Of a stretch of DNA of 64,000 nucleotides, positions 7,112 to 56,471 are shown piece by piece (position 1 is the stretch's first letter; the number at the start of each line of letters is the position of its first letter). The notes beneath the pieces were generated by a model, which was given only the letters and a program-made list of their open reading frames with translations, did no database searches and was not told the origin of the DNA. The DNA is from Eledone cirrhosa (lineage: Eukaryota). The position numbers were made by a program, and so were the translations under genes. The DNA is taken from contig OZ024741.1 of assembly GCA_964016885.1 (NCBI GenBank), forward strand, positions 162,874,001-162,938,000, read 5' to 3'.

Positions 7112-7585
7112 CGTTTCATTCTTTTCCATTTATCGTTTTCGGTGCGCCCGGCCGACTAACTCACTCGATATGCAAATTAGGCTGCTCACTCGTTAATATG
7201 CATAAAGAAAGTATATACTTTCAAACGTTCAATCATCTGACAGGAAGGTAGACGATGCTGACGGTAGCTAATAAGCTTGCAACTAGTACATTGTTCCTGT
7301 GTCAGTGTTGAACAAAAAGGCGACGATGGTTGTGGAACACTGTACGGCGTAATTCGGGCTGTTTGTTTAGAAACAAACCGAACATTATAATAAATGTTCG
7401 CTAAACTCATACGTACATATATATATGTGTGCATGTATGCATATATATATACATACTACTGTACGTATGTATACATGTATGTATGTACGTATACATACAT
7501 ACTTACATTTAAGTAACAGCCGTACTATGAGTGAGAAATGAAATTTCGTTTCATTCTTTTCGTGAAACGAAATTCGCCCGAAACG

Positions 7586-8174
7586 AATGCAATAGGCATT
7601 TCAATAAGAAATTAGAATGGATGAATAAGAAAAAACTACAAGAAAGGAAAATAGAATATTCTCAAAAATACCCAGATAACATCAACAATATCTGTATGAC
7701 TGATGTAAAACTACCAGAAGAATTTACCAATGACCACACAGTAAATATTTATGGGAACACTTTAATCAGTGAACAAGAACAACAAATCCCGCAGCTACCA
7801 CCAAAATTTGCCATCTACAAAAAGATTAACCCTATTGAGTGCAAAACGGAGCTGGAAAAGTGTTTCACAAAAATACGTTGGAATGCAAAAGTAAACAACA
7901 ACAACAACAATAATAACGGTAGTAGTAATATAAACAATAACTCTGAGTATAGAAATAACAGCCATAACAATAACAATAGCAGGAGAGTGAGAAATAGTAA
8001 TAATGGTAATAATACTAACGATAGACAGAACAACAACAACAACCACAATAATAATAATAATAGAAACATTAACCATAGACACAGCAGCAGCGACCACAGT
8101 AGTAATAACGGTAACAATGCGAACAACAACAACAGCAACCACAGTGGTAATAATGGAAATAATACAATAGCAAT
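7586..8174 (+). pseudogene. N-terminal fragment of a Penelope-like element ORF with an Asn-rich tract
   Basis: ISEQEQQIPQLPPKFAIY..ELEKCFTKIRW resembles the PLE N-terminal domain; cut off at the start of the next element. Confidence 0.55.
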
Positions 8175-8434
8175 AGATCTTTGATTCTTATAACTTATAT
8201 ATAACTGCTCTGTAAAACATCTGATGTTATTACATTGAGCTATTTAACTTACTGGTAATAAGGTAGTAATATATTACTGCCTATCACTATTTAGGGTTTG
8301 TAAAAATATATATAACTACAAAAGGTCTTTGTATTTGCATAACCATAAATAGTATCCGTAATACTATTAACTGCTCCATACTGTTGAGCTGACATACAAT
8401 AAATTACCAATATGCTAATCAAAGACACATCCCC

Positions 8435-9859
8435 ATGTCAACCAAGAACATACCAATACCATCCAAGAATACATATGAGAAATTGTTGATCAACAGTGTA
8501 AATACCTTTATCAATAGAGTGAGATGGAGGACATTCCATTATGATAAAAACAAATCTAACAATGTTAATAATACTAAAAAATTTGACACCTTCGGCTTTA
8601 AAACCTTTAAAAGCCCCCCTCATAACACACTACTAAACTCCTTTGAAAATGACCTAATAAAACTAGTTAAGAACATTAAATACAATAAGCACCGTAATAG
8701 AAACAACACCTTCTTAAACAAACTTAACACCTCTATTAATGAATTCAAAACTAGTAATAAAATTATTGTACACGCGGATAAAACTAATAACGTATACAGC
8801 CTAGATTATAATACTTATAGAAAGTTTATATATAATGAACTACATAAAAGCTACAAGAAAACTACTATGAAAATCCTAGAGGATATTAATATAGAGGGAT
8901 ATAATATAGTGTTTAAACTAGGACTTCAGAGGCATACACAACCATACACCCCAAACCCCCCTAGATTCTCTCTGAAGGACCATAAGGAGGACTTCCTTAG
9001 CAACCCCTCGATTAGACTTATCTCCCCTTCCAAGTCTGACATTGGCATTATCAGTAAGAACATTTTAGATAAAATCATCCCACAGATTAAACACAAGATA
9101 CACCTTAAACAATGGAGAAATACGGGTGAAGTTATTGAATGGTTCAAAGATATCAAGAATAACAAGGACAACAAATTTATTCAATTTGATATCAATTCAT
9201 ACTACACCTCTATTTCCCCTATCCTATTAAATAAGGCACTAATCATGGCCATGAGCAATAGCGACCTGACTAGAACCCAGATTGATGTCATCCTTGCGGC
9301 CCGTAAAACCATAATCACCTTTGAAGACCAATTATGGACCCGCAAGGATACGCACAACAACTTCGACATAACCATGGGGTCTAGTGACTCGGCGCAGGTC
9401 ACTGATTTGGTCGGCCTATACTTACTTAATGAAATCCATAAGGACCTTCCATACCTCAACGGTGGTTTGTACCGCGATGATGCACTTCTACTTATAGAAT
9501 ATAAAAAATTCAATATAGAAAGAACTAGAAAACTATTGCACAGGACAATCAAAAACTATAACCTTAGTATCATCATGGACAAAAACACTAAAAATGTTAA
9601 CTTCCTAGACGCCACACTATACCTAGACTCAAAGATATATACACCTTTCCATAAGCCTAACGAAAAACCCATTTACGTGGATACCAAGTCTAATCACCCT
9701 AGATCAATATTAAACTCTATCTCTAAGGGGGTATCCAATAGAATCTCTAATCTACCCTATGACGCAAACATATTTAGCAAAAACTCGCAATATTATAATC
9801 AAGCATTAGCTAGATCCGGCCATAATATAGAGATTGAGTTTCTACCTACGAAAACATAG
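8435..9859 (+). CDS. PLE reverse transcriptase (N-terminal part of a frameshifted ORF)
   Basis: Motifs ADKTNN, FIQFDINSYY, MGSSDSAQVTDLVGLYLL, GLYRDD, VNFLDA, SNHP. Confidence 0.85.
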   Translation: MSTKNIPIPSKNTYEKLLINSVNTFINRVRWRTFHYDKNKSNNVNNTKKFDTFGFKTFKSPPHNTLLNSFENDLIKLVKNIKYNKHRNRNNTFLNKLNTSINEFKTSNKIIVHADKTNNVYSLDYNTYRKFIYNELHKSYKKTTMKILEDINIEGYNIVFKLGLQRHTQPYTPNPPRFSLKDHKEDFLSNPSIRLISPSKSDIGIISKNILDKIIPQIKHKIHLKQWRNTGEVIEWFKDIKNNKDNKFIQFDINSYYTSISPILLNKALIMAMSNSDLTRTQIDVILAARKTIITFEDQLWTRKDTHNNFDITMGSSDSAQVTDLVGLYLLNEIHKDLPYLNGGLYRDDALLLIEYKKFNIERTRKLLHRTIKNYNLSIIMDKNTKNVNFLDATLYLDSKIYTPFHKPNEKPIYVDTKSNHPRSILNSISKGVSNRISNLPYDANIFSKNSQYYNQALARSGHNIEIEFLPTKT

Positions 9860-10868
9860 CTACAGCATTATCTCGCACAATATGTCCATGAGGAAACCTA
9901 GTAATATGAATAGCAACCACACGCACACTAAAACAGCGGGTGCCATCAAAAGTAACCATTACCGCAGAAACTACCGTAGTACCTTAAGAGGAAACAACAC
10001 ACCAGACACTAAAAACAAAAATAGAAGAAGAAATAATATATTTTTCAACCCTCCTTTCAATCTAAACGTCTCTACCAACATACCTAGGGCTTTCTTCTCA
10101 CTACTATATAAAAACTTCCCTCTAGGACACAAGTACCATAACCTTTTAAACAAAAACACTATTAAAATCTCATACTCTACGACGCCTAACATAGCATACC
10201 ACATAGCTAGTAGCAATAAAAGAAAAATTAATTCTTACTTCCAACAAACAAAATCGCAACAGGGGGTAAACCTTCAAAATAACTCTGTAGCAAGTAACCC
10301 TAATAACGGCAGTAATAATAGTAATAGCACTAGTATAAGCAATAACACCGGGGACGACAACCCCCATATCCAAAATCCTATAGCTACCACCCGGACTTCT
10401 GCACAGCATTATAACCAGCAGACTACCACCCAGAATAATTGTAACTGTAGAGCAAATAGAACCTGCCCTTTAGATAAAAAATGCTTAATCAAGGATGTCA
10501 AATACTCATGCACCGTCACAACTAGCAACTCTTCAGAAATCTATGTAGGCTCCACTTCTAACTGCTTCAAAACCAGGTATAATTCGCACATCCACTTGTT
10601 CAAAAAACACAGTCTAGCCAACCCCACCTCACTATCTAGCTACATACACTATCTAAAAACTAAAAATAAATCTTACACACTCAAATGGGAAGTGATAGGT
10701 AGCGCGACTTCGTACAAACCACCTAATAAATTTTGTAACCTCTGTCTACTAGAGACCCACACTATTATCTTCTCTAACCATAACCTATTTAACAAAAAAT
10801 CTGAAGTGTTCGCGACTTGCCAGCACCGCTTCAGACATTCCTTCCAAAACTTTAAGCCCAATATATAG
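9834..10868 (+). CDS. PLE linker and GIY-YIG endonuclease (C-terminal part of the frameshifted ORF)
   Basis: FNPPF, CNCRANRTCPLDKKC (CxCx5Cx5C), YVGST..FKTRYNSH, CNLCLLE, CQH. Different frame from the RT ORF. Confidence 0.85.
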   Translation: MSFYLRKHSYSIISHNMSMRKPSNMNSNHTHTKTAGAIKSNHYRRNYRSTLRGNNTPDTKNKNRRRNNIFFNPPFNLNVSTNIPRAFFSLLYKNFPLGHKYHNLLNKNTIKISYSTTPNIAYHIASSNKRKINSYFQQTKSQQGVNLQNNSVASNPNNGSNNSNSTSISNNTGDDNPHIQNPIATTRTSAQHYNQQTTTQNNCNCRANRTCPLDKKCLIKDVKYSCTVTTSNSSEIYVGSTSNCFKTRYNSHIHLFKKHSLANPTSLSSYIHYLKTKNKSYTLKWEVIGSATSYKPPNKFCNLCLLETHTIIFSNHNLFNKKSEVFATCQHRFRHSFQNFKPNI

Positions 10869-14707: not shown

Positions 14708-15104
14708 TATTTCTATAAAATCAGCGCAGATGTTACATGTTCGGTGACATTTAAAAAAATAACCGATGATGATTGTTGTTGCTCTTTTGCTGTTTCTTTA
14801 TTTTTCTCTGTTTTAATATTCTTTTCGAAAAATATTGCATTTACACGCTTATATAGTTTAAAATTCATAAATGTGTTATAAAAATGCCGATTTAACGGTA
14901 TAAAATGAACACAGGAAAACAGGTAATAAATAAGAAAAAAAACATAATTATTACGCACCTTGGGGTGCATTGACATACGGTATTTTAGGGCATTTTAAAA
15001 CCTGGTGGAGCCCATCTTTTCCCCAGGTCTGAATACAGAAGATTTCTTCCAGAGAAGGATAGAGAGTGAGAGAGAGGAAGCGAGAAAGAGATATAGAGAA
15101 AGAA

Positions 15105-15250
15105 TCGCCCCCAGTACTAAACTGCTCCTTTTTTTATCGACCTGGAATGGATAAAAGGTAAAGTTGACCTTGGCGGGATTTGAATTCAGAGAGCCGAAAC
15201 GACTACTGCAAAGCATTTTATCCGACATTCTAACGACTCTGCCAATTCAC
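15105..15250 (-). mobile_element. tRNA-derived SINE (main family), diverged copy
   Basis: ttttatcgacc..aaagttgaccttggcgggatttgaa matches the copies at 18069-18915. Confidence 0.7.
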
Positions 15251-17587: not shown

Positions 17588-18068
17588 TTTATGTCTATGT
17601 ATGAACTGAATAGGGATTTTATGTATAAAGACACGGGGTTTTGTTGTTGTTTAGCGCCACACTAGAGCTGATAGAGAAAATATATCGTTAAAAGCAATCC
17701 AGCCATGACTATGCCATGTTTTCACAGACACGGTATTCTAGGATTATATCCTAAAACATGCCTGCCTTTCCTTTTTTTTAAAAGATTTACGAGTGTTATT
17801 TGGTGACGATTTGACTGCTAATTGCTAATTCTAGCAGATCGAAAAACACCGTGGAGGTTCCTCGCTGGTTCGTAACGATAGGGAATGAAAGAAATAGTAG
17901 GGAGTAATTCTTCCAGAAGTGATACATTGAGTGTTAGACGCATGCCAATCAGTAAGTTATAAATTACATGTCTTCTACTTAAACAAATAAACCCCGCTTG
18001 TATCTAATGAATGAAAACCAATATTAATTACATAAGAGATAATGATAATATTTCTCTTTGATGTAGCT

Positions 18069-18915
18069 AATAATGATTTCTATTATAGGCGCAAGGCCAG
18101 TAATTTGGAGGAGGGGAACGTCGATTAAATCGACCTCAGTGTATGACTGGTACTTTATTTTATCGACCCCGTAAGGATGAAAGACAAAGCTAAACTTAGT
18201 AGGATTTGATCTGAGAATGTAAAGGGCCATAACTCTATGCTGCAAAGCATGCTGTCTGACGCTCTAGCGATACTGCCAATAATAATAATAATTGTTTCTA
18301 CTTTTGGCACAAGGCCAGCAATTACCCAGTACATTACTGGTACTTTATTTTATCGACCCCGCAAGGATGAAAGGCAAAGTTAACCTTGGTGGGATTTGAA
18401 CTCAGATCATAAAGGGCTGTAACTCTATGCTGCAAAGCATGGCTTCAGACCCTCTACCGATACTGCCAATCCACATAATAATGGTTTCTTATATAGGCAC
18501 AAGGCCAGCAATTTTGATGGGAGGGGAAAGTCGATAAAATCGACCCCAGTGCGTGACTGGTACTTTATTTTATCGACCCCGTAACGATGAAAGGTAAAGT
18601 CAACCTCAGCGGGATTTGAACTCAGAATATAAAGGGCTGTAACTCTTTGCTGCAAAGCATGGCGTCCGACCCTCTACCGGTGCTGCCAATCCACCCCCTT
18701 CACATAATAATAATAATAATAATAATTGTTTCTACTTTAGGAACAAGGCCAGCAAATTACCCAGTGCATTACTGGTACTTTATTTTATCGACCCCGTAAG
18801 GATGAAAGGCAAAGTAAACCTCGGCGGGATTTGAATTCAGACCGTAAAGGGACGTAACTATGCTGGAAAGCATGGCGTCCGACCCTCTACCGATACTGCC
18901 AATCCACCGCCCTTC
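18069..18915 (-). mobile_element. Head-to-tail array of four tRNA-derived SINEs separated by (AAT)n
   Basis: Each unit has A-box-like tggcagtatcgg, B-box gttcaaatcc, core ctttcatccttacggggtcgataaaataaagtaccag and an (ATT)n tail. Confidence 0.9.
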
Positions 18916-18917
18916 AC

Positions 18918-18956
<39 letters not shown>

Positions 18957-18993
18957 GAGGGAGATCGGTGAGAAGGCACAACAACAGACTGAT

Positions 18994-21385
18994 TTGAGTA
19001 TCACAGTTGAAACTCTTAAGGGGCAAGCCAAAAAACTAACCAACTGGAAATCACCAGGCCCAGATGGTGTGCAGGGGTATTGGATTAAACATTTAACATC
19101 CCTCCACCCGAAGCTGACGGCCATGTTCAATGACTGCTTGGTGTCGGGTGAGGTGCCAGAGTGGTTGACAAAAGGTACCACAGTTCTGATAATGAAAGAC
19201 CGAATCAAGGGTAATGATGTTACCAACTATAGACCTATCACATGTCTGCCCGTAATGTGGAAACTGTTGACGAGCATTGTGTCTGAGGAAATCTACCATC
19301 ACCTCCACACAAACAACTTGTTACCGGACGAACAGAAAGGATGCCGAAAGAAGTCACGTGGTACAAAGGACCAGTTGCTTATTGATAAGATGGTAATGGG
19401 GAATTGCAGGAGGAGACACACTGATCTTGCCATGGGATGGATAGACTACAGAAAGGCATTTGACATGGTGCCTCATTCCTGGATCACCAAAAGCCTGGAG
19501 GTCTTCAGGGTGGCAGATAACATCAGACAGTTGCTGGGCAGGAGTATGGGGTCCTGGGAGACAGAGTTGACATCAACTGGAGTATCCTTGGGAAGCGTGA
19601 AGATCAAGAGAGGTATCTTCCAGGGAGATAGCCTGTCCCCTCTGTTGTTTGTCCTTGCCCTGATGCCCTTGACCATTATGCTGCGAAAAGTGAGAGCAGG
19701 ATACAAGTTGGGAAGGGGAGAGCTTACCATCAATCACCTCCTCTTCATGGACGATCTTAAGCTCTTCGGGAAAAGTGAGAAGGAGTTGGATGTGCTTGTT
19801 GACACTGTCCGTATTTTCAGCAGTGATATATGTATGCAGTTTGGTATTGGTAAATGTGGAGTCATTGTGATGAAGAGGGGTAGGTTGAGCAGAAGTAACG
19901 GGATCCAGATACCAACAGGTGAGATGATAAAGGAAATTGACTCTGAGGAAGGATACAAGTATTTGGGCGTTCTGGAGGCTGATGGCATAAAGAACAAAAA
20001 AATGAAGGAATTGTTAAGAACTGAATACATTCGGAGAGTAAGGAGCGTATTGAAGTCACATCTGAACAGCAGAAATGCCATAAGCGCAGTAAATTCCCGA
20101 GCTGTGTCTATTATTAGGTACAGTGCGGGAATTCTGAGATGGAATGTTGCTGAACAAAAAGAAATGGATAGGAAGACTAGGAAGCTATTAACTATCTACA
20201 ACATGTTCCACAAGAGGAGTGATGTCGATAGACTCTACCTAAGGAGATCTGAGGGTGGAAGAGGTCTTATCAGCATAGAGGACTGTGTTCAGATGGAGAA
20301 AAACAACCTATACAAATACGTGACCTATAGTAAGGAGCCAATGCTCAGAACTGTACTGAAGGAGGGGACAGTAGGCCAGGGGATGTCCAAGGAGGAAATA
20401 ACTGTTTCTACTTTTGGCACAAGGCCAGCAATTATCCAGTACATTACTGGTACTTTATTTTATCGACCCCATAAGGATGAAAGGCAAAGTTAACCTCGGC
20501 GGGATTTGAACTCAGAATGGCAAGGGCCGTAACTCTATGCGCCAAAGCATGGCGTCCAACCCTCTACCGATACTGCCAATTCACCATCCAAGGAGGAAAT
20601 AACATCAAGGAGGAAGAGCAGCCTTAAGGGAAAATCCCTTCATAGTACCTTCTTTGAGAAAACTGAATTTAGAGATCCACAGACATGGAACTGGTTGAGA
20701 AGAGGAGACCTCAAAAAGGCTACAGAAGGAATGCTAATGGCTGCGCAGGAGCAGGCCCTCAAAACGAAGTGGTTGAAGCACCATATCTACAAGGAGGAGG
20801 CTAGCCCACTGTGCAGGATCTGTGGAGAGAGAGAGGAGACTGTGGCTCACATTGTGTCCGAGTGTAAACACCTAGCCCAGACCCACTATAAGGGCTGGAG
20901 ACACGATGTGATGGGCAGGGTGATCCACTGGCACCTGTGCAAAGTAAACAATCTACCACATTCTGAGAAATGGTATGAGCATAGGCCAGAGGCGGTGATG
21001 GAGAACAGTCAGGTGAAGGTGCTGTGGGATTTTAGGATACAGACGGACAAAAAACTGGAACACAATAGACCTGACCTGGTGGTTGTGGACAAAGAAAAAA
21101 GATCGTGCCTGATTGTGGATGTGGCCTGCCCGTTCGACACGAGAGTGCAAGAGAAGGAGAGGGAGAAAATTAACCGATACCAGGACCTAAAGTGGGAGGT
21201 GAAAAGGATTTGGAACTGCCATGAAGTCAAAGTGATCCCGATTGTCATAGGCGCACTGGGGACTATCTCCAAAGGTTTCCAGGGATGGTTAAAGAAAATC
21301 GGCCCCTTCACACGCTTTTTGGAACGCTTCAAAAGGCATGCTTGCTTGGAACAGCAAGAACCCTCCGATACGTCCTGAATATCTG
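18994..21385 (+). pseudogene. Dong-A RT-RLE polyprotein, disrupted
   Basis: ORFs 18994-20493 and 20695-21378 are one reading frame broken by the SINE at 20403-20586, plus a 2-bp insertion near 21310 relative to copy 2. Confidence 0.9.
20403..20586 (-). mobile_element. tRNA-derived SINE inserted in Dong-A with a 17-bp TSD
   Basis: tccaaggaggaaataac at 20386-20402 and 20587-20603; the empty site is present in Dong-A copy 2 at 28246-28262. Confidence 0.95.
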
Positions 21386-21740
21386 AGGCTGCAGGTAGTG
21401 GCTTGATATTCAATCCAACGGACTTTCCAGTTAACCAACATCAATGACTGAGATTCAAGGAATAACAATAACAATAATAATAATAATAATGATTTCTTTA
21501 TTAACCACAAGGGTTTACATAAAGTAGACATTAAGGACAGTGCAGGACAATGCAGGACGGTACAAATGGGCATTTCTGCGTGTAAAAAACAAAAACAGAG
21601 GATGTAACAAAAAATAACAATGAAAAATTCCCCAATAGGGGGCAGACTTCGGAGGGACATTTGTGGAGAAAGCCCAGTAAAAAGCCACAATGACCCTGAC
21701 CACCAAGGCAAGTGCCCTCTCCCAGTTTTCCACCTTTAAT

Positions 21741-23915
21741 TTACAGATATATACTCAGAGTAGGCCCATTCACTCGGGCCATTCTTGCTTCTCTCACCCA
21801 TCTTTCAACAAAATGCTGGGAAGAGAGCACTTCCCTCTCTACTCTGATTTTCCTTTTCAAATGAAATTTGAAAAAGTCAATCAGAGCATCACCGAAGAGG
21901 TAAGTGCTCGTCTTCAGCCCTTTCAAACGTGTCCACCATACTATCTCTTTCACCATGTCCACCAGGCAGATAAAAACTGCCTGCCCTTCCCGGCTAAAGG
22001 AGGAGGGCGGGGCAATCCTCACGATGGACTCAGATGATAGCCGGATCCGTCCTAAACGCGACAGCAGGTGTTCGACATAAACCCACAAGTCAGCAATTTT
22101 CGGACACTGGACGAGTGCGTGCAGGACGGTTTCGTCGCCCTGCGCGCATCTCGGACATGCCCGGCTGACGGCACCTCCATGCCTGTAGAGTTTATCCCGA
22201 ACTGGCAAGGCTCCTCGGTAGCACTGCCAGGCCAGAGATTTCTGGAAGTTGTCCATAGGCCCTGGCCCGAAAGTTCTTCCGAAGAGATTGGCTAGTTGAT
22301 TTTCGTCGACGCCTAGAGTTTCCCCAAGTACGTCGTCGCTCTTCCCCTCCACTAATCCTCTATAGAACGCCGAGGTGGAGTTTCCACCGATCACATTGCC
22401 CGATTGGTCGAGGGCTGTGAGCGCCTGAAGACATTCCAGTCTCCAGGCGCTCCCTCTCGGTCTTCGCTTGACCCAGGACTGCAGCTCCGTCAAGGAAACG
22501 AGCTGGGGAAAAACGCGTCTAGCAAACGGCGGCCACACCTGATCACCGTCGAGGAAGAGGTGGAGATGTCGTAGCCTGAGCGCGTGCCTGCGCATCATCA
22601 GCCAAGGCATGCCCAGCCCTCCACGTAGCGGGTGTTGACAACAGATGGACCGCCTGACCATCGGAGCACGTCCCTTCCACAAAAAGCGAAAGAGCAAACG
22701 CTCCAGCGCAGTCAGGCGAGGCTTAGGACAAGGTACGACGGTTAGGCGGTAGCAAATGACAGACGCGATGTACGCGTTAGCCACCTCCGCTCGACCTTTC
22801 AGGGATAGCTTCCTCTCCGCCCATTTCTGGGTGAGAGAAGCCACCCTGCTCGTCATCTCGTCCCAGTTTTTGTCCGTCTGGAGGTCCGGACCGAACCAGA
22901 CCCCTAGCAATTTAACCGGTCCGTCCGTCCAGCGCCCGACGACGCTGTTGGACGGCATGGACCTGCCTCTCCAGGTGCCGAGCTGCAGGCCCACTGACTT
23001 TTCCTGGTTGATCATTGCTCCTGTCACCGCTTCGTATTCTCTTAGAGTAGTGCCGATCGCCTCGATGTGTTTGGCGTTCGACACCACTACGGTGACATCG
23101 TCCGCATATGCTGACACGGATCTTCCGCATCCTAGTTCGCGCGGGACTCCCCTCAACGTCTCCAGTTTGTGCAGTAATGGCTCGAGAGTCAATACGTACA
23201 AGAGGGACGAGAGGGGACATCCTTGGCGGACCGAGCGCATGATGTTGAACGGTTCCGACAGGTGACCGTTCACTCTCACCACAGAGCAGATGTCGCTGTG
23301 CATGGCAGCGATCCAGCCTCTGAAGACGGGCCCAAAGCCAGCCGCCCTCAGGACTGCCGCTAGGTAACGATGGTCGACCCTATCGAAAGCTTTCGACTGA
23401 TCTAAATTGATCAAGGACCCACCCGTGCCAGGTTCCTTAGCTACCCTCTCTATGATGTATCGCATGAGGTGGAGGTTGTCGTGGATGGATCTGTCGGGAA
23501 TGGCGCATGTCTGCGCCTCTCCCACCAGACCACCAACGACAAGCGACAACCTCTTTGCTAGCACCTTGGCCAAAATCTTGAACTCTGTGTTTAGCAGAGT
23601 TATGGGCCGGCAATTGTCTATGTTATCCCCCTTGTTCGGATCCTTTCTCAGCAGTGCCACCGCTCCTCGGCTCACAGAACTGGGAATTCTCCCGTTCTGT
23701 TGCCAGTTGCAGTAGACGTCCGCCAAGAGGCCTCCGAACAAGTCTGGCATCTGTACGTAAAGTTTATAGGGCAGACCATCCAAACCAGGCGATTTACCCC
23801 TTGTGCAGCCAGTCATTGCCTCCCTTACTTCAGCGGCTGTTATCGGCTTTTCGCAACACTTCGCCTCAGTGGCCGAGAGCCGCGGCAGTCCGTCGAGGTA
23901 GACACTAAAGTCCAT
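21741..23915 (-). CDS. Tx1 ORF2, RT and C-terminal zinc-finger part
   Basis: KSPGLDGLP, LDQSKAFDRVDH, SVRQGCPLS, AYADD, CPRC..ETVLHALVQC. Confidence 0.9.
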   Translation of the reverse strand: MDFSVYLDGLPRLSATEAKCCEKPITAAEVREAMTGCTRGKSPGLDGLPYKLYVQMPDLFGGLLADVYCNWQQNGRIPSSVSRGAVALLRKDPNKGDNIDNCRPITLLNTEFKILAKVLAKRLSLVVGGLVGEAQTCAIPDRSIHDNLHLMRYIIERVAKEPGTGGSLINLDQSKAFDRVDHRYLAAVLRAAGFGPVFRGWIAAMHSDICSVVRVNGHLSEPFNIMRSVRQGCPLSSLLYVLTLEPLLHKLETLRGVPRELGCGRSVSAYADDVTVVVSNAKHIEAIGTTLREYEAVTGAMINQEKSVGLQLGTWRGRSMPSNSVVGRWTDGPVKLLGVWFGPDLQTDKNWDEMTSRVASLTQKWAERKLSLKGRAEVANAYIASVICYRLTVVPCPKPRLTALERLLFRFLWKGRAPMVRRSICCQHPLRGGLGMPWLMMRRHALRLRHLHLFLDGDQVWPPFARRVFPQLVSLTELQSWVKRRPRGSAWRLECLQALTALDQSGNVIGGNSTSAFYRGLVEGKSDDVLGETLGVDENQLANLFGRTFGPGPMDNFQKSLAWQCYRGALPVRDKLYRHGGAVSRACPRCAQGDETVLHALVQCPKIADLWVYVEHLLSRLGRIRLSSESIVRIAPPSSFSREGQAVFICLVDMVKEIVWWTRLKGLKTSTYLFGDALIDFFKFHLKRKIRVEREVLSSQHFVERWVREARMARVNGPTLSIYL

Positions 23916-25159
23916 CCCTCTACCCGGCCCACCGCTGCCCCGAACAGCTGAGCGAAGTGTCGCTGAAAAGCTTCACACATTTGCCCGGGATCGAGTAGCA
24001 TGCGCCCGTCGTGGTCCACCAAAGACCGGATCGTGTCTTTGTTGCCACGACGCGCCTCCGCCACTCGGGCCCATTGGACGGCTTTCGTCCCCTCGTGTCT
24101 GAGAGCACGCACCCTTGCTCTGACAACGCAGCCTTCGTGCTTTGCATTGAAGAATTGGTCAAGGGCCAATTTCGCCGCAAGCACGTCGGTCGCAATGCCT
24201 TTGCTAAGCGCCTCGTCTAATTTTCTAACTAGTTCTCCCTCTGCTCTATTTTTCTCTATTGCTAAAGCCTTACTAAACCTAATCGATTCTATTCTAATCG
24301 CTCTTTTCAGAGCAAACCACCACTTGTTGTTGACGATGGCCCCCGTCAACGCCCGCTTAACTAGTTCGCTAATCCGGTCTCTGTAGGCCTTGCGCGCTGG
24401 TAAGGACGCGTTTAGCTTCCAGTAGCCGGGTCCTCGTCTATGAAGCCTATCTAAGTCAAGCACACAGATCACGAATTTGTGGTCCGTGTAGCTGACTATC
24501 TTGAATTGTGGACAGCCTATGCTAGACCTATCTATTTCCCTACAAAATACTCTATCTAGATATGATCTGGATGACCCTATGCGGTTTGTCCAAGTCCACA
24601 TTGGCACATTCGGGAAATCCAATCGGTACCTGTCAGACAGTTCAAAACGCCTGAGCAGGTTGGTGAGGCTCTTGCACCCTCCACCCCTATCCGCTAATCC
24701 CACACAGTCCCAGCGTGCATCTAAGATCCTGTTCCAGTCGCCCACTAACACTAAAGAGCGGGACGTTCCAAGAAAGGTCTCCAGACGCCGGAAGAAATCA
24801 GGCCGCCCTGCTCCTGTCGGGGCATAGACGGCCACTAGCCTGAAAGCTTGCCCGTCTCCGCTAGTCACGTCCAGCACCACCAGCTTACCCTCTGGGTCCA
24901 GGAAGATGGCCCGTATGGCGAGATCCAAACCTCTCCGAAAAAGCACAGCAACTCCTCCACCGGATCCCGGACGGCTGGGAGATGCGTACACATCGTAGCC
25001 GCCGAAGATCGGTGCGAAGGCCCGTGCTTCGAAGATTCTGGTCTCGCTGATGGCCACTACATCTATGTTTAGTGACCTGAGGTCGTTGAGCAGGTGACCC
25101 TGCTTCCATGACGACCCCAAGCCACGCGCATTGATGCTGCCTATTCTGAGTGAGGTCAT
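23840..25159 (-). CDS. Tx1 ORF2, APE endonuclease part (one frameshift near 23920 joins it to the RT)
   Basis: SINARG, ISET, VYAP, GDWN, LDRVF, TDH, GPGYWKLN. Confidence 0.9.
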   Translation of the reverse strand: MTSLRIGSINARGLGSSWKQGHLLNDLRSLNIDVVAISETRIFEARAFAPIFGGYDVYASPSRPGSGGGVAVLFRRGLDLAIRAIFLDPEGKLVVLDVTSGDGQAFRLVAVYAPTGAGRPDFFRRLETFLGTSRSLVLVGDWNRILDARWDCVGLADRGGGCKSLTNLLRRFELSDRYRLDFPNVPMWTWTNRIGSSRSYLDRVFCREIDRSSIGCPQFKIVSYTDHKFVICVLDLDRLHRRGPGYWKLNASLPARKAYRDRISELVKRALTGAIVNNKWWFALKRAIRIESIRFSKALAIEKNRAEGELVRKLDEALSKGIATDVLAAKLALDQFFNAKHEGCVVRARVRALRHEGTKAVQWARVAEARRGNKDTIRSLVDHDGRMLLDPGQMCEAFQRHFAQLFGAAVGRVEGWTLVSTSTDCRGSRPLRRSVAKSR

Positions 25160-25194
25160 GTTTAAAATAGAGTGGAAAAGATGGGAAAGACCAC

Positions 25195-26481
25195 TTACCG
25201 TACTTTTGGTAGAGGAGGGATGGTTTTTACATCCCTTTTCACTTGATCGTCTGGTGAAGGGACCGTTGAATCGTCCCTTCGGCTGGTCGTCGGCTCTTCT
25301 AAGAGAATGTCTGAGTATACTCTTCGATTGATGGTTCCTCCTAGGTCCCTGAAATCACCAACTGCGTTGGGGAATTTCGTTTTAATGTTTGTGTATTGTT
25401 TCTGTGCTATTTTTAGCAGTCTTATGTTAGTTGGCGTTTTGATTGGTGCTGGTATTATGTAGTCCTGTTGTGAAATGTCTGTGTGTTCAATTATGTAAGT
25501 CATTAGTTTCTTGTTGTGTGTGTTTATTGCCGTGCATTTGTTTTTCTGGGGGTGGGGTGTGGTTCTGCTATTTTCTTGTCGTTGTTGCTGGGTGTGTGTG
25601 TTTTGTTGTTGTGTTTGCGATGTTGGTGCTTGTGGTGGTGGTGTTGAAGGTGTTGTTGGCGGTGGGGTTGTCGCCAGTGGTGATGGTGGTGCTAGTGTGG
25701 GTGGTGATGGTGTTGGTGTTGTTGCTGCTGTGGGTCTCTTTGCAGTAGACTTTACCCTTTTTTCATTTCTTTCCTCCCTTTTCAAAGGCGACGATGCGCT
25801 GCTTCTGCGTTTGTGCCTTCTTACGACCTTTTGCCATCTCTCTCCCACCTCACACTCCATGTCTGATTCTGTGAGGTCGGGGAGGGGTACCAGCTCCACT
25901 CTTTCACTTGTTGTTGTTGGTGATGTTTGCACTGGAGTCTCTGTTGCAGCTGCATTTGGTATTGCTGTTGTTGTTGTTAGTATTTCCACTGCTGCTGCTG
26001 TTTTTGATTTCCGTGGAGTGGGTATGGGTGCCACGGGCCTATCGTTCCTGGTTGCCGCTTGTCCTGTTGCTGGTAGCTGTGGAGCCGGATTCGGAAGGAG
26101 GGGGGTTTTCTCCTTTCTCAGGGTCTTCTCGTTGCAGAAGGCCCTGAGGTGAGTCTTCGATCCACAGCGAAAGCATTTCGGGCGTTTGCCCTCAACACTT
26201 ATGGGCAGTTGAGTGCCGTTATCGAAGTCTATCACATCCGGGATAGCTTCGATGCACTCCTGGTTGGTTTGGATTAGCATCTCAATGGAGGAGCCGACCC
26301 AATCTTCTCTTACTTTTTTCTGTACTTGCAGTACAGTTGTTTTGTCCTCGATTCCGACGAGGACAGACGCGGCCAGCCAAGAAGGGGTCATTCCGGGGGG
26401 GACGTGGGTCAGTTTGACCCTCACAATTTTTTGCCCGCAGTAGGAGGGCACCAACACCATTTCCTCGCTCCTTAGGGTCAC
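25195..26481 (-). CDS. Tx1 ORF1, C-terminal part with CCHC zinc knuckle
   Basis: CFRCGSKTHLRAFC followed by a Pro/Thr-rich tail. Joins 26282-27337 if one base is removed from the T7 run at 26539-26545. Confidence 0.8.
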   Translation of the reverse strand: MTLRSEEMVLVPSYCGQKIVRVKLTHVPPGMTPSWLAASVLVGIEDKTTVLQVQKKVREDWVGSSIEMLIQTNQECIEAIPDVIDFDNGTQLPISVEGKRPKCFRCGSKTHLRAFCNEKTLRKEKTPLLPNPAPQLPATGQAATRNDRPVAPIPTPRKSKTAAAVEILTTTTAIPNAAATETPVQTSPTTTSERVELVPLPDLTESDMECEVGERWQKVVRRHKRRSSASSPLKREERNEKRVKSTAKRPTAATTPTPSPPTLAPPSPLATTPPPTTPSTPPPQAPTSQTQQQNTHTQQQRQENSRTTPHPQKNKCTAINTHNKKLMTYIIEHTDISQQDYIIPAPIKTPTNIRLLKIAQKQYTNIKTKFPNAVGDFRDLGGTINRRVYSDILLEEPTTSRRDDSTVPSPDDQVKRDVKTIPPLPKVR

Positions 26482-27337
26482 TACTGATTGGGCCTTTGCC
26501 TCCTGGGGTGTGGCAAAAAGTACGTCTACGGTGGCATATTTTTTTGCCTCGGGTGATGTGCGTTTTCCGCTGCCACACAGACCCCAAGGCTTTTTGTATT
26601 TGGGCCTCTGTGGCTCTTTCCACCCTACGGGATTTTGTACTTACTGTACGGTACGTGACCGTACAGTGCTCTTGGGTTTCGAAAAAATTTTCCGCTGCCT
26701 TGCAGATTGCTCGGTGTCCGTTCTTTGTCACCATCTTCTTCGCTTCCTCTAATTCCTCATTTGTTATGAGGATTGTTTCCAAGTTTTTCGCAATACCTGC
26801 AAATGAGATTGGTTTTTCTCTGCTGTTGTTGTTGTCGTCAGAGCTGCTGGTACTTTTGTTGTTGCTGCAGGTACTACGACTACTGCCTCCGCCGCTGTTG
26901 CTGTGGTTGTTGTTGGTGTTGCTGCTGCTAATGCTGTTGTTGTTTATGCTGCTGGTGATGCTGTTGCGGCTGCTACTGTTGTTTTCATTGTCACTGTTGC
27001 TGTTGTTATTACGGCTGCTACTGCTATTATTCCTGACGTCAGACGAATGAACTGGGTTTTCGTATTTCCCGCACACCTGTTTCGTCGCTGTCGTCGTCGT
27101 CGTGGAGAAACCTTGCACGCTTTGCACGAGACTTTTCTTATCTTTCGTCACTTGCGAAAGAGAAGGGAGGGAGAGAGACACATTTAAAGAAGGGAGGGAG
27201 AGAGACAATCTTCTCTCTGCTGTAGTGATGATTGAGGAAGAAGAAGACGGGAATGAGTGGGAGTGACGTATGAAATTTCTTTTTCGTAGCCATGTTGTTT
27301 TTTTGTTTAAAATGAAATTTTGGGTACAAAACCCCAA
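26282..27337 (-). CDS. Tx1 ORF1, N-terminal part (Ser/Asn-rich; true start uncertain)
   Basis: Contains SFAGIAK; lies upstream of the zinc-knuckle ORF; frameshift at RGKK|YATVDV. Confidence 0.65.
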   Translation of the reverse strand: MGFCTQNFILNKKTTWLRKRNFIRHSHSFPSSSSSIITTAERRLSLSLPSLNVSLSLPSLSQVTKDKKSLVQSVQGFSTTTTTATKQVCGKYENPVHSSDVRNNSSSSRNNNSNSDNENNSSSRNSITSSINNNSISSSNTNNNHSNSGGGSSRSTCSNNKSTSSSDDNNNSREKPISFAGIAKNLETILITNEELEEAKKMVTKNGHRAICKAAENFFETQEHCTVTYRTVSTKSRRVERATEAQIQKALGSVWQRKTHITRGKKICHRRRTFCHTPGGKGPISSDPKERGNGVGALLLRAKNCEGQTDPRPPRNDPFLAGRVCPRRNRGQNNCTASTEKSKRRLGRLLH

Positions 27338-27530
27338 TAACTGGTTATTTAACCCCGAAGGGCCAAATAACGGACAGAAAGACCCCTCTCACGAGGAGGA
27401 GGGTGTCTTTATCAACAATTTGGTTCAAGTTTTAAACAATTTACAATTGTTTTAACGGTTAAAAATTACTATACCTTACAGAGCCGAGCCTCCGTCAACC
27501 ATGGCATTCAATAATAATAATAATAATAAT

Positions 27531-29120
27531 ATTATGTGTACTGCAAAAAGTGAGAGCAGGATACGGGTTGGGAAAGGGAGGGCTTACCATCAATCACCTC
27601 CTCTTCATGGACGATCTTAAGCTCTTCGGGAAGAGTGAGAAGGAGTTGGATGTGCTTGTTGACACTGTCCGTATTTTCAGCAATGATATATGTATACAAT
27701 TTGGTATTAGTAAGTGTGGAGTCGTTGTGATGAGGAGGGGTAAGTTGAGCAGAAGTAACGGAATCCAGATACCAACAGGTGAGATGATAAAGGAAATTGT
27801 CTCTGAGGAAGGATACAAGTATTTGGGCGTTCTGGAGGCTGATGACATCAAGAACAAAAAAATGAAGGAATTGATAAGAACTGAATGCCTTCGGAGAGTA
27901 AGGAGCGTATTAAAGTCACATCTGAACAGTAGGAATGCCATAAGTGCAGTAAATTCCCGAGCTGTGTCTATTATTAGGTACAGTGCGGGAATTCTGAGAT
28001 GGAATGTTGCTGAACAAAAAGAAATGGATAGGAAGACTAGGAAGCTATTGACTATCTACAATATGTTCCACAAGAGGAGTGATGTCGATAGACTCTACTT
28101 AAGGAGATCTGAAGATGGAAGAGGTCTTATCAGCATAGAGGACTGTGTTCAGATGGAGAAAAACAACCTATACAAATACGTGACTGATAGTAAGGAGCCA
28201 ATGCTCAGAACTGTACTGAAGGAGGGGACAATAGGCCAGGGGATGTCCAAGGAGGAAATAACATCAAGGAGAAAGAGCAGCCTTCAGGAAAAATCCCTTC
28301 ATAGTACCTTCTTTGAGAAAACTGAATTTAGAGATCCACAGACATGGAACTGGTTGAAAAGAGGAGACCTTAAAAAGGCTACAGAAGGAATGTTAATGGC
28401 TGCGCAGGAGCAGGCCCTCAAAACGAAGTGGTTGAAACACCACATTTACAAGGAGGAGGCTAGCCCACTGTGCAGGATCTGTGGAGAGAGAGAGGAGACT
28501 GTGGCTCACATTGTATCCGAGTGTAAACACCTAGCCCAGACTCACTATAAGGGCTGGAGACATGATGTGATGGGCAGGGTGATCCACTGGCACCTATGCA
28601 AAGTAAACAATTTACCACATTCTGAGAAGTGGTATGAGCATAAGCCAGAGGCGGTGATAGAAAACGATCAGGTGAAGGTGCTGTGGGATTTTAGGATACA
28701 GACGGACAAGAAACTGGAACACAATAGACCTGACCTGGTGGTTTTGGACAAAGAAAAAAGATCGTGCCTGATTGTGGATGTGGCCTGCCCATTCGACACG
28801 AGAGTGCAAGAGAAGGAGAGGGAGAAAATTAACCGATACCAGGACTTAAAGTGGGAGGTAAAAAGGATTTGGAACTGCCATGAAGTCAAAGTGATCCCGA
28901 TTGTCATAGGCGCACTAGGGACTATCTCAAAAAGTTTCCAGGGATGGTTAAAGAAAATTGGCCCCTTCACGCTTTTTGGAACGCTTCAAAAGGCATGCTT
29001 GCTGGGAACAGCAAGAACCCTCCGATACGTCCTGAATATCTGAGGCTGCAGGTAGTGGCTTGATATTCATTTCAATAAACTTTCCAGTTAACTAAAATCA
29101 ATGACTGAGACTCAAAGAGT
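27531..29120 (+). mobile_element. R4/Dong-clade LINE family A, copy 2 (5'-truncated; ORF 27550-29043 open)
   Basis: Near-identical to copy 1 from about 19675 onward. (AAT)n at both ends; a SINE 3' stub at 29165-29182 faces its tail. Confidence 0.93.
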
Positions 29121-29126
29121 AATAAC

Positions 29127-29165
<39 letters not shown>

Positions 29166-29610
29166 TGTTTCTACGTTAGGCATTAATAATAATAATTGTT
29201 ATTCTTATAATAATATGCATAACATGTTTTAGCGTACAGAGATAATTATATAAAAAGTATGCATTAAATATTACGTAACTGACAGAATAATTGTCTAAAA
29301 GCTGATACTGTTATCGTAATAATAATCACTTACTTAAAGATTTCATTATGAATATCGTAGCCTATTCTACATGTATTAATATATATTCTAAATGCAAATG
29401 GATTCACAAATAACTTTATTGTGTACTAGGCTTACTTGTTGAAGATTGTATCATTAGTGAGAGAATGTTTGAAGTACAAAATCACACATATTTTAGAAAC
29501 CATACAAAGCAACATTAGATTTAATATCTTGAAATGTATCTTGAATAATCCTTAATATAGTTAAGCCAGCCTTTGAATCATTTAGTATTTCACAAGCATA
29601 AGACACACGT

Positions 29611-33800: not shown

Positions 33801-34101
33801 TCATCTTCGCAGTCATAAAGTGAGACCAGTGGTTGACTACAAGGCTGATGTTGGAGATGCTACTCATCATGCCTGCCAAGCATGTGGTAGAGAATGTAAA
33901 TAAGCAGGAGGGCTCAAACGACATGCAAAAATACATGAACTCCAACCACAGCAGGCTATTCCCAGTGAATGTTTTGGTTGCCAAATCTGTGTAAGACATT
34001 TTAGATCATTGGCTGGGCTAAAAAGCCACATTCGATCGCAGCACTGTTAAATGTTATCGTGTGTGTGTGTTTGTGTGTGTGTGTATGTGTGTATAGATAT
34101 G

Positions 34102-34168
<67 letters not shown>

Positions 34169-34690
34169 CGCGTCTCCCTTGCCGTCCTCCGGGGAAACGC
34201 CTTCTGTATTCTGTCCGCCGGGGCTGTGGGGAGGCCACCGATATGATTGACTGACTTGTCATTTCATCAGTCAGATGTTTTTAGACCCCAGTACTGGAAG
34301 TTCTGAATACCGTTTATTTTTTGATGTTACGCTTGTATATTTAATTAATCTTAATTGTAGTTTACATTCGAATGTATTATTATTATTGTTGTTATTAAGG
34401 GGCGGTGGATTGGTAGTATCGGTAGAGGGTCGGACGCCATGCTTTCCAGCATAGAGTTACGGCCCTTGCCATTCTGAGTTCAAATCCCGCCGAGGTTAAC
34501 TTTGCCTTTCATCCTTACGGGGGTCGATACAATAAAGTATCAGTCACGCACTGGGGTCGATTTAATCGTCTTTCCCCTCCCCCAAAATTGCTGGCCTTGT
34601 GCCTATATAAGAAACCATTATTATTGTCGTTATTATGTTGTTTTTCATTCGTGCTATGGCTATACTCGATAATGACGAGGCAGCCATCAT
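30838..34690 (+). mobile_element. RTE-clade LINE, degenerate (APE, RT and three C2H2 fingers); 3' end displaced by an insertion
   Basis: YTFFW, SVYAPT, LGDFNARVG, TTWMHP, NYRGISLLS, QSGFRAGRGT, LLYADD, RLRWSGH..RIPKQLFYGEL; many frameshifts. Confidence 0.92.
34399..34622 (+). mobile_element. tRNA-derived SINE (main family), full copy in ATT-rich sequence
   Basis: A and B boxes, core, gtcgatttaatcg segment, ends agaaaccattattatt. Confidence 0.9.
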
Positions 34691-40400: not shown

Positions 40401-40779
40401 GGGTTGCGTGTTATTAGACGGTGGTTTGACAGCTATCGCTAGCAGATCTGGGAATTGCGTAAAACATCACCTCTATGGCTCCTATACACCATTTATTGGT
40501 TTTGATTTTATTTTAGTTGCGTTGCATATTAGATACCACACCAAAACCTGTTAACTCCTCATGGAGTTGTAGGGGCGGGTGCTCTCATGACATTTAAATT
40601 TAAGTATTTAACCTGTTAGATCCCATTTCTCTAGGACTGAACACAATTGATTTCTCCCAGAGAAAAATGAGAGAATGAGGTAAAGAGAAAGAGAAGGAAA
40701 GGGTGAGAGAGTAAGGAGCGGGGCGAGAATGAAGAATCGCCTCTCAATTTTGAACTGGTTTATTATTTATCGACCTTAG

Positions 40780-41070
40780 GACGGTTGATTGGCAGAATCG
40801 GTAGAGCGTCGGACAACATGCTTAGTGGCATAGAGTCCCGCCAAAGTTAACTTTGCCTTTCGTTCTTTCATTCTAAAATAAAGCACCAGTAACGTACTGG
40901 GGTCGATCTAATCGACTTTCCCCTCCTCCCACCAATTAATGGCATTGTGCCTATACTAGAAATCATTATTTCTCGACCTTGAAAAGATAGAAAGTAAATT
41001 TGACTATAACGAAATTTGAAATCAGTGCTCAGAGACAGAACGAATACCGCCTCTGCTAAATCACCGCCTA
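40780..41070. mobile_element. Main-family SINE (+, about 40780-40970) followed by a decayed opposite-strand fragment
   Basis: Homology to the other SINE copies; ends agaaatcattatt. Confidence 0.75.
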
Positions 41071-41707: not shown

Positions 41708-42974
41708 AATTTATCTGGCATGATATATGACTAAACTTTCGAATCTATAAAGAAGAAAAATAACAAAAAGCAAAACAAACAAAAAAAAAAAGAAACTTTA
41801 CAACTAATTAGAATACTACGCTGCAAAGTGATTTAGAAATGGTTTATTTAATATTTTTCCCACCCGTGCTGATTTTGTCGTTTTATTCTGTGATTCAATC
41901 TACTGCTTTGCGTTAGCATGTTAGATTACAATTATGATTTGTTACATTTTTACAAGGTTTCATGTAGTGTTATAAGATCATAGGTTCGTAATGTGACGGT
42001 GCATAGTCGATGATAGTGGTGAATGGAATAAATACACGCCGTCTAGAAAATGTATTGACGGCTCGAAATGCGCCCCATTGTGGTAAATATGTTTTTGATG
42101 TAGTATGAAATATAATTTATTTTAGCTAGATATGTTCCTAGAATCACACAAAATATTTTATATCCCTGTTAATTATAAAGGTCAATTTTTCTTGTTCAAC
42201 ATCTATTATGTCGAATAAAGTTGTGAACATACGATTTTCATTAAAATAGATACACAACCACCTAGTTCACCCGATTTGTAAGATATTAAACTGGGTGTTA
42301 GTTCTGTTGTGTTTCGATTAATAGAGGCATGGGCATACTTAGTATTGTAATATACAGATAAAATTCGTTGCGCAAACTTATTGTCGACGACAAGCTTTTC
42401 ATGCTGATAAACAGGTTTTCCTGACGTAAAACCTGACATTCTTGCCACAAAAATGGAGAGAAAGGATCTCCTACACCAGTTCAAAATTTGTCAACATAAT
42501 CTATTATCTGAGCCATAGAGAGCTTATTGCGATTTAGTTGTTCTTAAATACCCTAAAGGCTTTCTTATCAAGTCAAATTCCGTTTCACAACCATCTGTAA
42601 AAGCATTTCAGAACTCATCTATGGTATCTGGTCAGCGGGTATTTAATTCTAGTGGGATTAAAATCATATTATTTGATTGCCATCATTTTGAAAATCCAAA
42701 CAATTTATTCTATTTACCCTACTTACAAATGACTATACCTCCCTGGTTTATTTGAATTGAATTTATTATATACCATTTTATATAAACGGGCATGCTGTGA
42801 TACTCATATCATACGCTAACGTTAGTCGAAGCTTCTCGTCATGGTGCAACTCAGAAAAACAAAAACAAAACGAAAAGAGAAATATAACATAGAAACAGAG
42901 AGATCTGCAATGTTTTGTTGAACGCATCTTACATAGATGGAAAAATATAATATTTCATTTGTGTATTATATACA

Positions 42975-43164
42975 GGCGTTGGATTGGCAGTATCGGTAGA
43001 GGGTCTGACGCCATGCTTTTCAGCTTAGAGTTACGGCCCTTTATGATCTGAGTTCAAATCGCGCCGAGGTTAACTTTGCCTTTCATCCTTACGGAGTCGA
43101 TAAAATAAAGTACCAGTAATACACTGGTATAATTGCTGGCCTTGTGCCAAAAGTAGAAACAATT
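42975..43164 (+). mobile_element. tRNA-derived SINE (main family)
   Basis: A box, B box, core and 3' end present. Confidence 0.88.
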
Positions 43165-50180: not shown

Positions 50181-50191
50181 ATGTATGTATG

Positions 50192-54116: not shown

Positions 54117-54237
54117 GTATGTATGTATGTATGTATGTATGTATGTATGTATGTATGTATGTATGTATGTATGTATGTATGTATGTATGTATGCATGCAT
54201 GTATGCATGCATATATGTATGTATGCATGCATGCATG

Positions 54238-55338: not shown

Positions 55339-55344
55339 ATATAT

Positions 55345-55591
55345 AAACGAGGATGTTTCGTTTACATATGAAACATATTTATTGCGTATCGATTTGTTAC
55401 GCGCGTTTCGCAGAGGATTGACTCAAGGTGACCCATAGGAGTTACGGATCTAACTCAGGTATCGATATACTCGTTAGGCTGGTGATGTGACAAAAATATA
55501 TCTTTTGTCACATCATTTTGTCACGTGAAATACGCGTAACAGGTCGATACACAATAAATATTTTTCATATGTAAGCCAAACTTCCTCGTTT
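55345..55591. mobile_element. MITE or foldback element with long imperfect TIRs
   Basis: TIRs of about 65 bp starting aaacgagga..ttacatatgaaa..tatcga..gttacgcg; internal 12-bp hairpin gatgtgacaaaa/ttttgtcacatc. Confidence 0.75.
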
Positions 55592-56290: not shown

Positions 56291-56471
56291 TTGTTTCTAC
56301 TTTAGGCACAAGGCCAGCAATTACCCAGTACATTACTGATACTTTATTTTATCGAACCCGTAAGGATGAAAAGCAAAGTCAACCTCGGCGGGATTTGAAC
56401 TCAGATCGTAAAGGGACGTAACTATGCTGGAAAGTATGGCGTCCGACCCTCTACTGATACTGCCAATCCAC
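56291..56471 (-). mobile_element. tRNA-derived SINE (main family)
   Basis: Full copy; agaaatattaat occurs on both flanks (likely TSD). Confidence 0.88.

Follow-up and report, generated by a model that had tools for sequence, protein, structure and literature searches.

The 64,000-nucleotide window analysed here (Eledone cirrhosa, GenBank assembly GCA_964016885.1, contig OZ024741.1, positions 162,874,001 to 162,938,000 of the forward strand; coordinates below count from its first letter) contains several copies of an abundant short interspersed element (SINE) and one full-length long interspersed element (LINE) of the Tx1 type. From a short match between their 3' ends, a preliminary description of this stretch proposed that the SINE is mobilised by this Tx1 family or a relative. 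End sequence, covariation, target, duplication length and polarity support that proposal, and a relative is likelier than the subfamily found in the window. We estimate a probability of roughly 0.75, judged from sequence, that the SINE is a non-autonomous partner of an ATT-targeting Tx1 lineage with hairpin-dependent recognition. The features on which this rests are as follows.

21491..27509, minus strand: Tx1-type non-long-terminal-repeat retrotransposon, full-length (frameshifted copy), with an ORF1 region and an ORF2 comprising apurinic/apyrimidinic (AP) endonuclease, reverse transcriptase (RT) and zinc finger; sits between (ATT)n runs
21503..21515, minus strand: predicted 3' hairpin of Tx1, 4-bp stem and CTTGT loop
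21491..21502, minus strand: terminal spacer of Tx1, AATAAA then GAAATC; kept in 10 of 12 Tx1 copies found via ORF2 alone
27510..27530, minus strand: (ATT)n run at the 5' junction of Tx1 (target or left duplication)
18483..18699, minus strand: SINE, long subfamily, the copy compared in the preliminary description; A and B boxes in a tRNA-like head, and a hairpin at 18495-18507
18075..18279, minus strand: SINE, long type, terminus AGAAATC as in Tx1
18293..18475, minus strand: SINE, short subfamily, member of a tandem array
18727..18912, minus strand: SINE, short subfamily, first of the tandem array
20403..20586, minus strand: SINE, short subfamily, nested in a Dong-like open reading frame (ORF), with a 17-bp duplication (20386-20402 and 20587-20603)
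34400..34615, plus strand: SINE, long subfamily, with a 19-bp duplication beginning ATTATT
40778..40963, plus strand: SINE, long type, terminus AGAAATC, with a 16-bp duplication
42974..43161, plus strand: SINE, short subfamily
56292..56471, minus strand: SINE, short subfamily

The Tx1-type element has the domain set of its clade (Pfam PF03372, PF00078 and PF13966, plus ORF1), and sister copies have intact ORF2 frames of 1,161-1,204 codons. Its protein matches Xenopus Tx1 ORF2 at 247 bits (E 8.6e-68) and, in a separate search, human L1 ORF2p at 143 bits. The best Atlas cluster is named TX1 (score 0.97), and the nearest named relative is from Argonauta (68%), with another from a cuttlefish (49%). 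A quick RT tree joins the Tx1 families of this genome, the Argonauta protein and two unnamed proteins in one clade (100); its link to Xenopus Tx1 runs over long branches and is not settled by this tree. In the same tree, a TATC-targeting group is nested in the ATT-targeting group. The target specificity typical of Tx1 elements is seen in the (ATT)n flanks at both ends of the window copy. The family is young, as 40 of 40 scored genome matches are ~100% identical across the last 413 nt. The 5' untranslated region contains an inverted repeat (27419-27483, minus strand) with a weak Rfam hairpin match (E 0.41), and an Rfam scan of 17900-29200 gave just two weak microRNA-family matches, far under threshold.

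The SINE is tRNA-headed and non-coding, with lengths of 187 nt (short) or 216 nt (long). Its A box was located by script and its B box was read by eye, the regular expression having missed it. We identified at least 162,122 exact SINE ends in the 3.0-Gb genome (control 0), and extrapolation from 135 ends in 1.064 Mb gives ~380,000 copies. Small size, absence of coding capacity, boxes, target duplications and copy number are all those of a tRNA-derived SINE. ARAGORN called no intact tRNA in it. The SINE may be one of the octopus elements OR1, OR2 or OK. OR1 and OR2 are CORE-SINEs, marked by a CORE domain in the body, and OK is a tRNA-SINE reportedly described by Ohshima and Okada in 1994. Motifs of the SINE body had no match in the searched supplement files of PMC4824008 and PMC4758252. 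A sibling SINE of greater age agrees in head and central domain and ends in a longer, CT-rich tail of other sequence (window 15103-15250, minus strand, and downstream; also L100:2729-2818, L032, L043 and L045).

Read on the plus strand, the Tx1 end (21486-21512) and the SINE end (18478-18504) agree at 21 of 27 positions, or 16 of 22 without the first five letters, as originally reported. The gatttct form noted for other SINE ends was found at 18070 and 40969, and at 37093 in what is apparently a decayed end. The Tx1 element itself runs 21491-27509 (minus strand); the LINE that lies within the span originally given to the pair (18476..21512), at 18955-21460, is a plus-strand Dong/R4-like element of the RLE type and not Tx1. 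SINE and Tx1 have a common end plan, with a short predicted stem, a C-U-U-G-U-type loop, an A-rich spacer of ~11-14 nt and a stop at AGAAA(N)C, directly behind which stands ATTAT(T).

LINEs were sampled from 100 evenly spaced 10-kb stretches (1.06 Mb) and by a genome-wide RT search, and were assigned to clades by recognised motifs. The non-Tx1 ends recovered are those of RTE (three families with (GAT)n), Vingi/I-like (AAC)n, Dong-like (TAA)n or (CATA)n, two minor CR1-like elements and a young CR1 family with (ATT)n. In an end-anchored alignment of one representative per LINE end (8 Tx1 and 12 others, from CR1, RTE, Vingi/I-like and Dong) with three SINE end types, the Tx1 ends score 17-36, the other ends -2 to 14, and background means are 4-6. 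For each SINE end type the lowest Tx1 score exceeds the highest non-Tx1 score (17 versus 14, 24 versus 12, 20 versus 11), so none of the 12 sampled non-Tx1 ends matches the SINE better. The end type of the SINE copy at 18483 scores 24 against the window Tx1 end, a value reached by 2 of 1,467 background 40-mers preceding ATTATT; the top two scorers in that background are decayed SINEs. The shared 3' sequence of a stringent SINE-LINE pair is thus present, as ~28 nt that stand above background and above all other sampled clades.

Exact patterns identified Tx1-type termini in three sets of 11,587, 2,497 and 7,980 (~22,000 in total; controls 0). The ATT group accounts for 14,084 (control 0), and the other 7,980 belong to the TATC group. 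These patterns fix the loop, and Tx1 copies found via ORF2 alone were taken as an independent check: the terminus is retained in 10 of 12 (six with loop CTTGT, two with CCTGT, two decayed), and two have lost the end. In a divergent Tx1 family, recovered with a query that lacked the end, the 4-bp stem is intact in 19 of 20 copies. Stems differ between Tx1 subfamilies (AACC/GGTT, GGCC/GGCC, GGCC/GGCT, AGCC/GGCC and TGCC/GGCA). Those of the SINE are TGGC/GCCA or TGGC/GCCT, with the second pair swapped from C-G to G-C, and the loop and three G-C pairs are retained in both SINE subfamilies. A covariation test on 15 hand-picked rows (13 Tx1 and 2 SINE), whose relatedness can inflate the result, found 54 of 60 cells paired and 10 double-sided changes; the score of 0.543 was reached by 0 of 500 shuffles, and pairing in slid controls was at most 56%. 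A pattern scan of metagenomes for ends of Tx1 relatives in other species gave 0, and a query of RNA data with the Tx1 end gave no RNA record carrying it.

The hairpin is retained in the derived sister group (L161, L179, L196-L214 and L280-L291; 7,980 exact ends), which targets TATC/TATATC-type repeats. Its loops are CTTGT, CCTGT and CTGGT; the target has switched while the RNA signal stayed almost constant. At loci L131-L134 and L274, four SINE copies run into exact Tx1 termini that belong to several subfamily types and begin at the common loop, and a fifth copy has a Tx1-like spacer. These may be products of template switching or tiny Tx1 insertions. We did not take the four as evidence of partnership, because Tx1 insertions of 24-32 nt exist and joining by microhomology at the loop is an equally good explanation.

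Target duplications were scored for 37 of 61 full-length SINE copies, compared to a mean of 2.7 and a maximum of 6 when left and right flanks were shuffled between copies. All but two of these (35/37) are 10-22 bp long, and 20 of the 37 are 16-22 bp. They begin at the last base of the element, with consensus (T/C)|ATTATT, written Y|ATTATT below; ATTAT is directly behind 104 of 135 SINE ends. Thus, the SINE is almost without a tail of its own. The preliminary description gave (ATT)n tails to both elements; the ATT of the SINE is mostly the start of the target duplication.

In ATT-group Tx1, ATT repeats end 17 of 29 non-internal 5' junctions, a count that sets aside 14 further junctions flagged as internal deletions. 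At twenty 7-kb loci the duplication lengths of Tx1 are mostly unreadable (pure ATT runs or nested copies). One interrupted repeat (L026) has a duplication of 16 bp, and four TATC-group copies have duplications of 13-19 bp (one read by eye). Poly(A) was found at none of 30 Tx1 ends, though Tx1 copies carry AATAAA, which points to a defined start of reverse transcription. SINE and Tx1 both read ATT on the sense strand, the shared polarity that had been described. A CR1 family has an (ATT)n tail in this polarity too, so such a tail is no proof by itself, but the end and junctions of CR1 differ. Taken together, SINE and Tx1 agree in target, duplication range and polarity.

The (AAT)n runs of the window (18068-21490 and 27510-29165) are common landing sites, for Dong-like elements on one strand and for Tx1 and the SINE on the other, and nested arrays have formed there. 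At 8 of 30 loci a Dong end follows the Tx1 end. Template jumping that would co-insert Tx1 and SINE was considered and rejected, as the 13 listed tandem cases resemble successive insertions into ATT runs.

Median identity of SINE copies to their consensus is 93% (n=50) and 86% (n=10). In the random sample, six ATT-group Tx1 copies have 92-97% identity to a single representative, and one has 81%. The SINE peak looks older than the Tx1 subfamily of the window. At L228 the SINE duplication includes Tx1 bases, and therefore that SINE moved after that Tx1 copy; elsewhere, at loci chosen around Tx1, Tx1 copies sit directly behind SINE ends. This mutual nesting suggests that SINE and Tx1 activity overlapped, and the SINE peak is nonetheless older than most sampled Tx1 copies.

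We conclude that the last ~28 nt of the SINE are likely an old Tx1-derived end that retains the predicted hairpin. Transfer from LINE to SINE is the likelier direction, given that the hairpin is found throughout the Tx1 clade and that, in the quick tree, the TATC group branches within the ATT group. Probably the mobiliser was not the AU-stem subfamily of the window but a GC-stem subfamily or an ancestor, because the window subfamily is the weakest or joint-weakest ATT-group match; it is also younger than the SINE peak. In the proposed mechanism, RNA polymerase III (Pol III) would transcribe the SINE, and Tx1 ORF2p would bind the hairpin, reading the loop by sequence and the stem by shape, by analogy with L2 elements. 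At Y|ATTATT the Tx1 endonuclease would nick the AAT strand, and the primer freed there would pair with the AUUAU(U) that follows the RNA terminus. Reverse transcription would then begin at a set distance from the hairpin, and a further nick 10-20 bp off would create the duplication. AATAAA is missing from the SINE end; a Pol III transcript could do without it.

Several observations weigh against this interpretation. Only ~28 nt are common to SINE and Tx1, and nothing aligns upstream. The commonest SINE end scores only 17 against the window Tx1, a value reached by 22 of 1,467 background sites, and the window subfamily is the weakest or joint-weakest of six ATT-group ends (17, 24 and 20; the other five score 20-36). 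A search for a Tx1 family with the exact stem of the SINE found none (15 matches, 14 with SINE body and 0 with Tx1 sequence). Two of five covariation measures are not significant (81/500 and 55/500 shuffles), folding energies of the hairpins are not above those of shuffles (z -1.6 to 0.0), and the SINE copy at 18483..18699 favours a different fold. Some 3' hairpin is present in every sampled LINE type save three Dong ends, and the CTTGT loop is present in the TATC-targeting Tx1 group too (8 of 12 loci) and so does not single out the ATT group. The SINE copies are older than most sampled ATT-group Tx1 copies, and 24 of 61 full-length SINEs are without a scored duplication. At least four ATT units are behind the ends of young Tx1 copies in 24 of 30 loci (counted by eye) versus 8 of 135 SINE ends. 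The SINE thus accepts shorter ATT runs than Tx1; Tx1 RNA would carry more AUU repeats behind the hairpin than SINE RNA, which would account for the longer runs.

Tx1 might mobilise the SINE with relaxed recognition, requiring only the pairing of AUUAU(U) with the nicked target, so that the SINE hairpin is a relic. The folding energies and the difference of the SINE stem from every Tx1 stem found favour this, as does the generally relaxed behaviour of L1-clade elements described in PMC3747384. We consider it unlikely because the Tx1 stem covaries between subfamilies, the SINE subfamilies have kept the loop and G-C pairs, and Tx1 ends are without poly(A) in spite of AATAAA. A Tx1-lineage partnership of either kind, stringent or relaxed, is very probable. 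Somewhat less likely again than relaxed recognition is a true partner in an unsampled or extinct LINE of another clade, with the likeness to Tx1 due to convergence or an older tail swap. The sample is 1.06 Mb plus targeted searches rather than a full library, and L2, Hero and R2 ends were not seen in it; the SINE peak predates most sampled Tx1 copies, and the older sibling SINE has another tail. However, background 40-mers before ATTATT formed no further high-scoring family, and sequence-specific targeting with duplications of 10-20 bp fits Tx1.

The remaining candidates are weaker. Mobilisation by the young (ATT)n-tailed CR1 family is improbable and already largely refuted. Tail and polarity agree in 29 of 30 loci of this family (the full end motif is present at 28), and CR1 is a common SINE partner in PMC3747384, but the end of the family scores 6-12, at background, and its hairpin is another one (5-bp stem, 6-nt loop). 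A duplication score of at least 10 was reached in only 2 of 16 truncated CR1 copies, both in tandem or simple repeats, and an ATT-like left flank in 1 of 16. The Dong/R4-like element uses the same microsatellite, has (AAT)n arrays in common with the SINE and adjoins SINEs in the window. Its sense strand reads TAA and that of the SINE ATT, which would place priming on the other strand, and the end of Dong A scores 0-1; polarity largely refutes this candidate, to which we give almost no weight. As little credit is due to a chance match in AT-rich DNA, or to a "Tx1 end" that is in fact a SINE remnant hit by a Tx1 insertion. The match is short, and the background reaches the score of the window pair for the commonest SINE end, as noted above. 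This reading is refuted by the terminus belonging to the element, with its 14,084 exact ATT-group ends and its occurrence behind ORF2, and by the 5' junction of the window Tx1, where a SINE head was sought and none is present. RTE was rejected as mobiliser: its 3' end is not shared (three families have another hairpin and (GAT)n, and the fourth differs from the SINE too), and 16-22 bp for 20 of 37 SINE duplications compares with mostly 7-15 bp for RTE as given in PMC6007223.

The window contains two copies of a LINE that is presumably Dong/R4-like, judged by its (TAA)n ends; the RT of the first copy is closest to R2 among solved structures.

18955..21460, plus strand: Dong/R4-like LINE (presumed label), 5'-truncated, with RT, CCHC finger and PD-(D/E)xK nuclease and (TAA)n behind; polarity opposite to the SINE, not its partner
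27531..29110, plus strand: second truncated copy of the same family (92% amino acid identity); the Tx1 5' end abuts its flanking ATT run

Dong-like fragments with (CATA)n ends were also identified (43500-46400, 48970-52900 and 54200-55400, minus strand), as was a decayed RTE element (31233-34250, plus strand). A repeated element at 7531-10868 (plus strand) encodes an RT-like ORF with a GIY-YIG-like motif and has no Pfam match; it is likely Penelope-like, and relatives are present in several sampled stretches. Short non-coding elements at L176, L146, L184 and L187 share the RTE 3' hairpin and (GAT)n tail; they probably form a second SINE or non-autonomous family, partnered by RTE. The young CR1 family (L235-L264) has frames of 945 codons, ~99% identity, an (ATT)n tail of its own making and duplications that appear to be 4-6 bp long. 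A 10-kb tandem array at L031 is composed of ~27-30 nt units that match part of the CR1 3' region.

If the partnership holds, a SINE present in several hundred thousand copies has a likely engine, in a lineage that counts SINEs among its main repeat classes (PMC8967140, PMC13282606), and the L1/Tx1 group gains an animal test case for whether stringent recognition is ancestral. With an RNA signal that is nearly constant between them, the sister groups targeting ATT and TATC form a natural comparison for endonuclease specificity. Pairing of this kind is rarely described for the Tx1 group. We lean, by a little, to the view that the pair is the first to join a tRNA-SINE and a Tx1-clade LINE by a common 3' stem-loop, that an animal member of the L1/Tx1 group has stringent, loop-specific recognition with a start upstream of poly(A), and that a major octopod SINE expansion was driven by a Tx1 lineage targeting a microsatellite. 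Within the literature searched, which did not extend to Repbase, Dfam or subscription papers such as Ohshima and Okada (1994), SINEU was the sole prior Tx1-SINE pair; prior annotation of the present pair is possible. Octopus repeat surveys give L1-Tx1 and abundant SINEs, not paired in the portions of the surveys that treat them (PMC13282606, PMC8967140, PMC9115989). OR1 and OR2, like the SINE here, are tRNA-derived and abundant in octopods, and their descriptions name no partner LINE (PMC4824008, PMC4758252).

SINEU of crocodilians was inferred to be mobilised by a Tx1 group, Tx1-Mar, through a common target (Kojima 2015, PMC4494074). That case resembles ours in its common-target reasoning and in tandem insertions around a duplication. 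It differs in that SINEU has small nuclear RNA heads, poly(A) tails and, in that account, no LINE sharing the 3' end of SINEU-1, whereas the SINE here has a tRNA-like head, no poly(A), and a 3' end in common with Tx1. The fish elements Kibi and Koshi are likewise microsatellite-specific members of the Tx1 group; they target (TC)n and (TTC)n, compared to (ATT)n and a derived TATC-type group here (PMC4494074). Among APE-type clades, site-specific members are listed for Tx1 and R1 only (PMC6007223). The L1 group is a stated exception to tail sharing, with three SINEs carrying L1 tails among >800 families, all of them plant or algal; a table of 58 SINE-LINE pairs contains no Tx1 or cephalopod pair, and its L1 pairs are plant or algal only (Ohshima 2013, PMC3747384). 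Of these, ZmSINE2/3 with LINE1-1_ZM and SINEX-3_CR with L1-1_CR resemble the present pair in joining an L1-group LINE and a tRNA-SINE by a common 3' hairpin with compensatory stem changes and a conserved loop. They differ in involving plant or algal L1 rather than Tx1, in sharing ~50-80 nt, in having homopolymer tails and in not being microsatellite-targeted (PMC3747384). The stem of ZfL2 was found by experiment to be swappable and its loop specific (Hayashi 2014, PMC4176376). The same loop-specific, stem-interchangeable pattern relates UnaL2 to UnaSINE and ZfL2-1 to ZfL2-2; these belong to the L2 clade and were demonstrated experimentally, whereas the Tx1-SINE pattern is read from sequence (PMC4176376).

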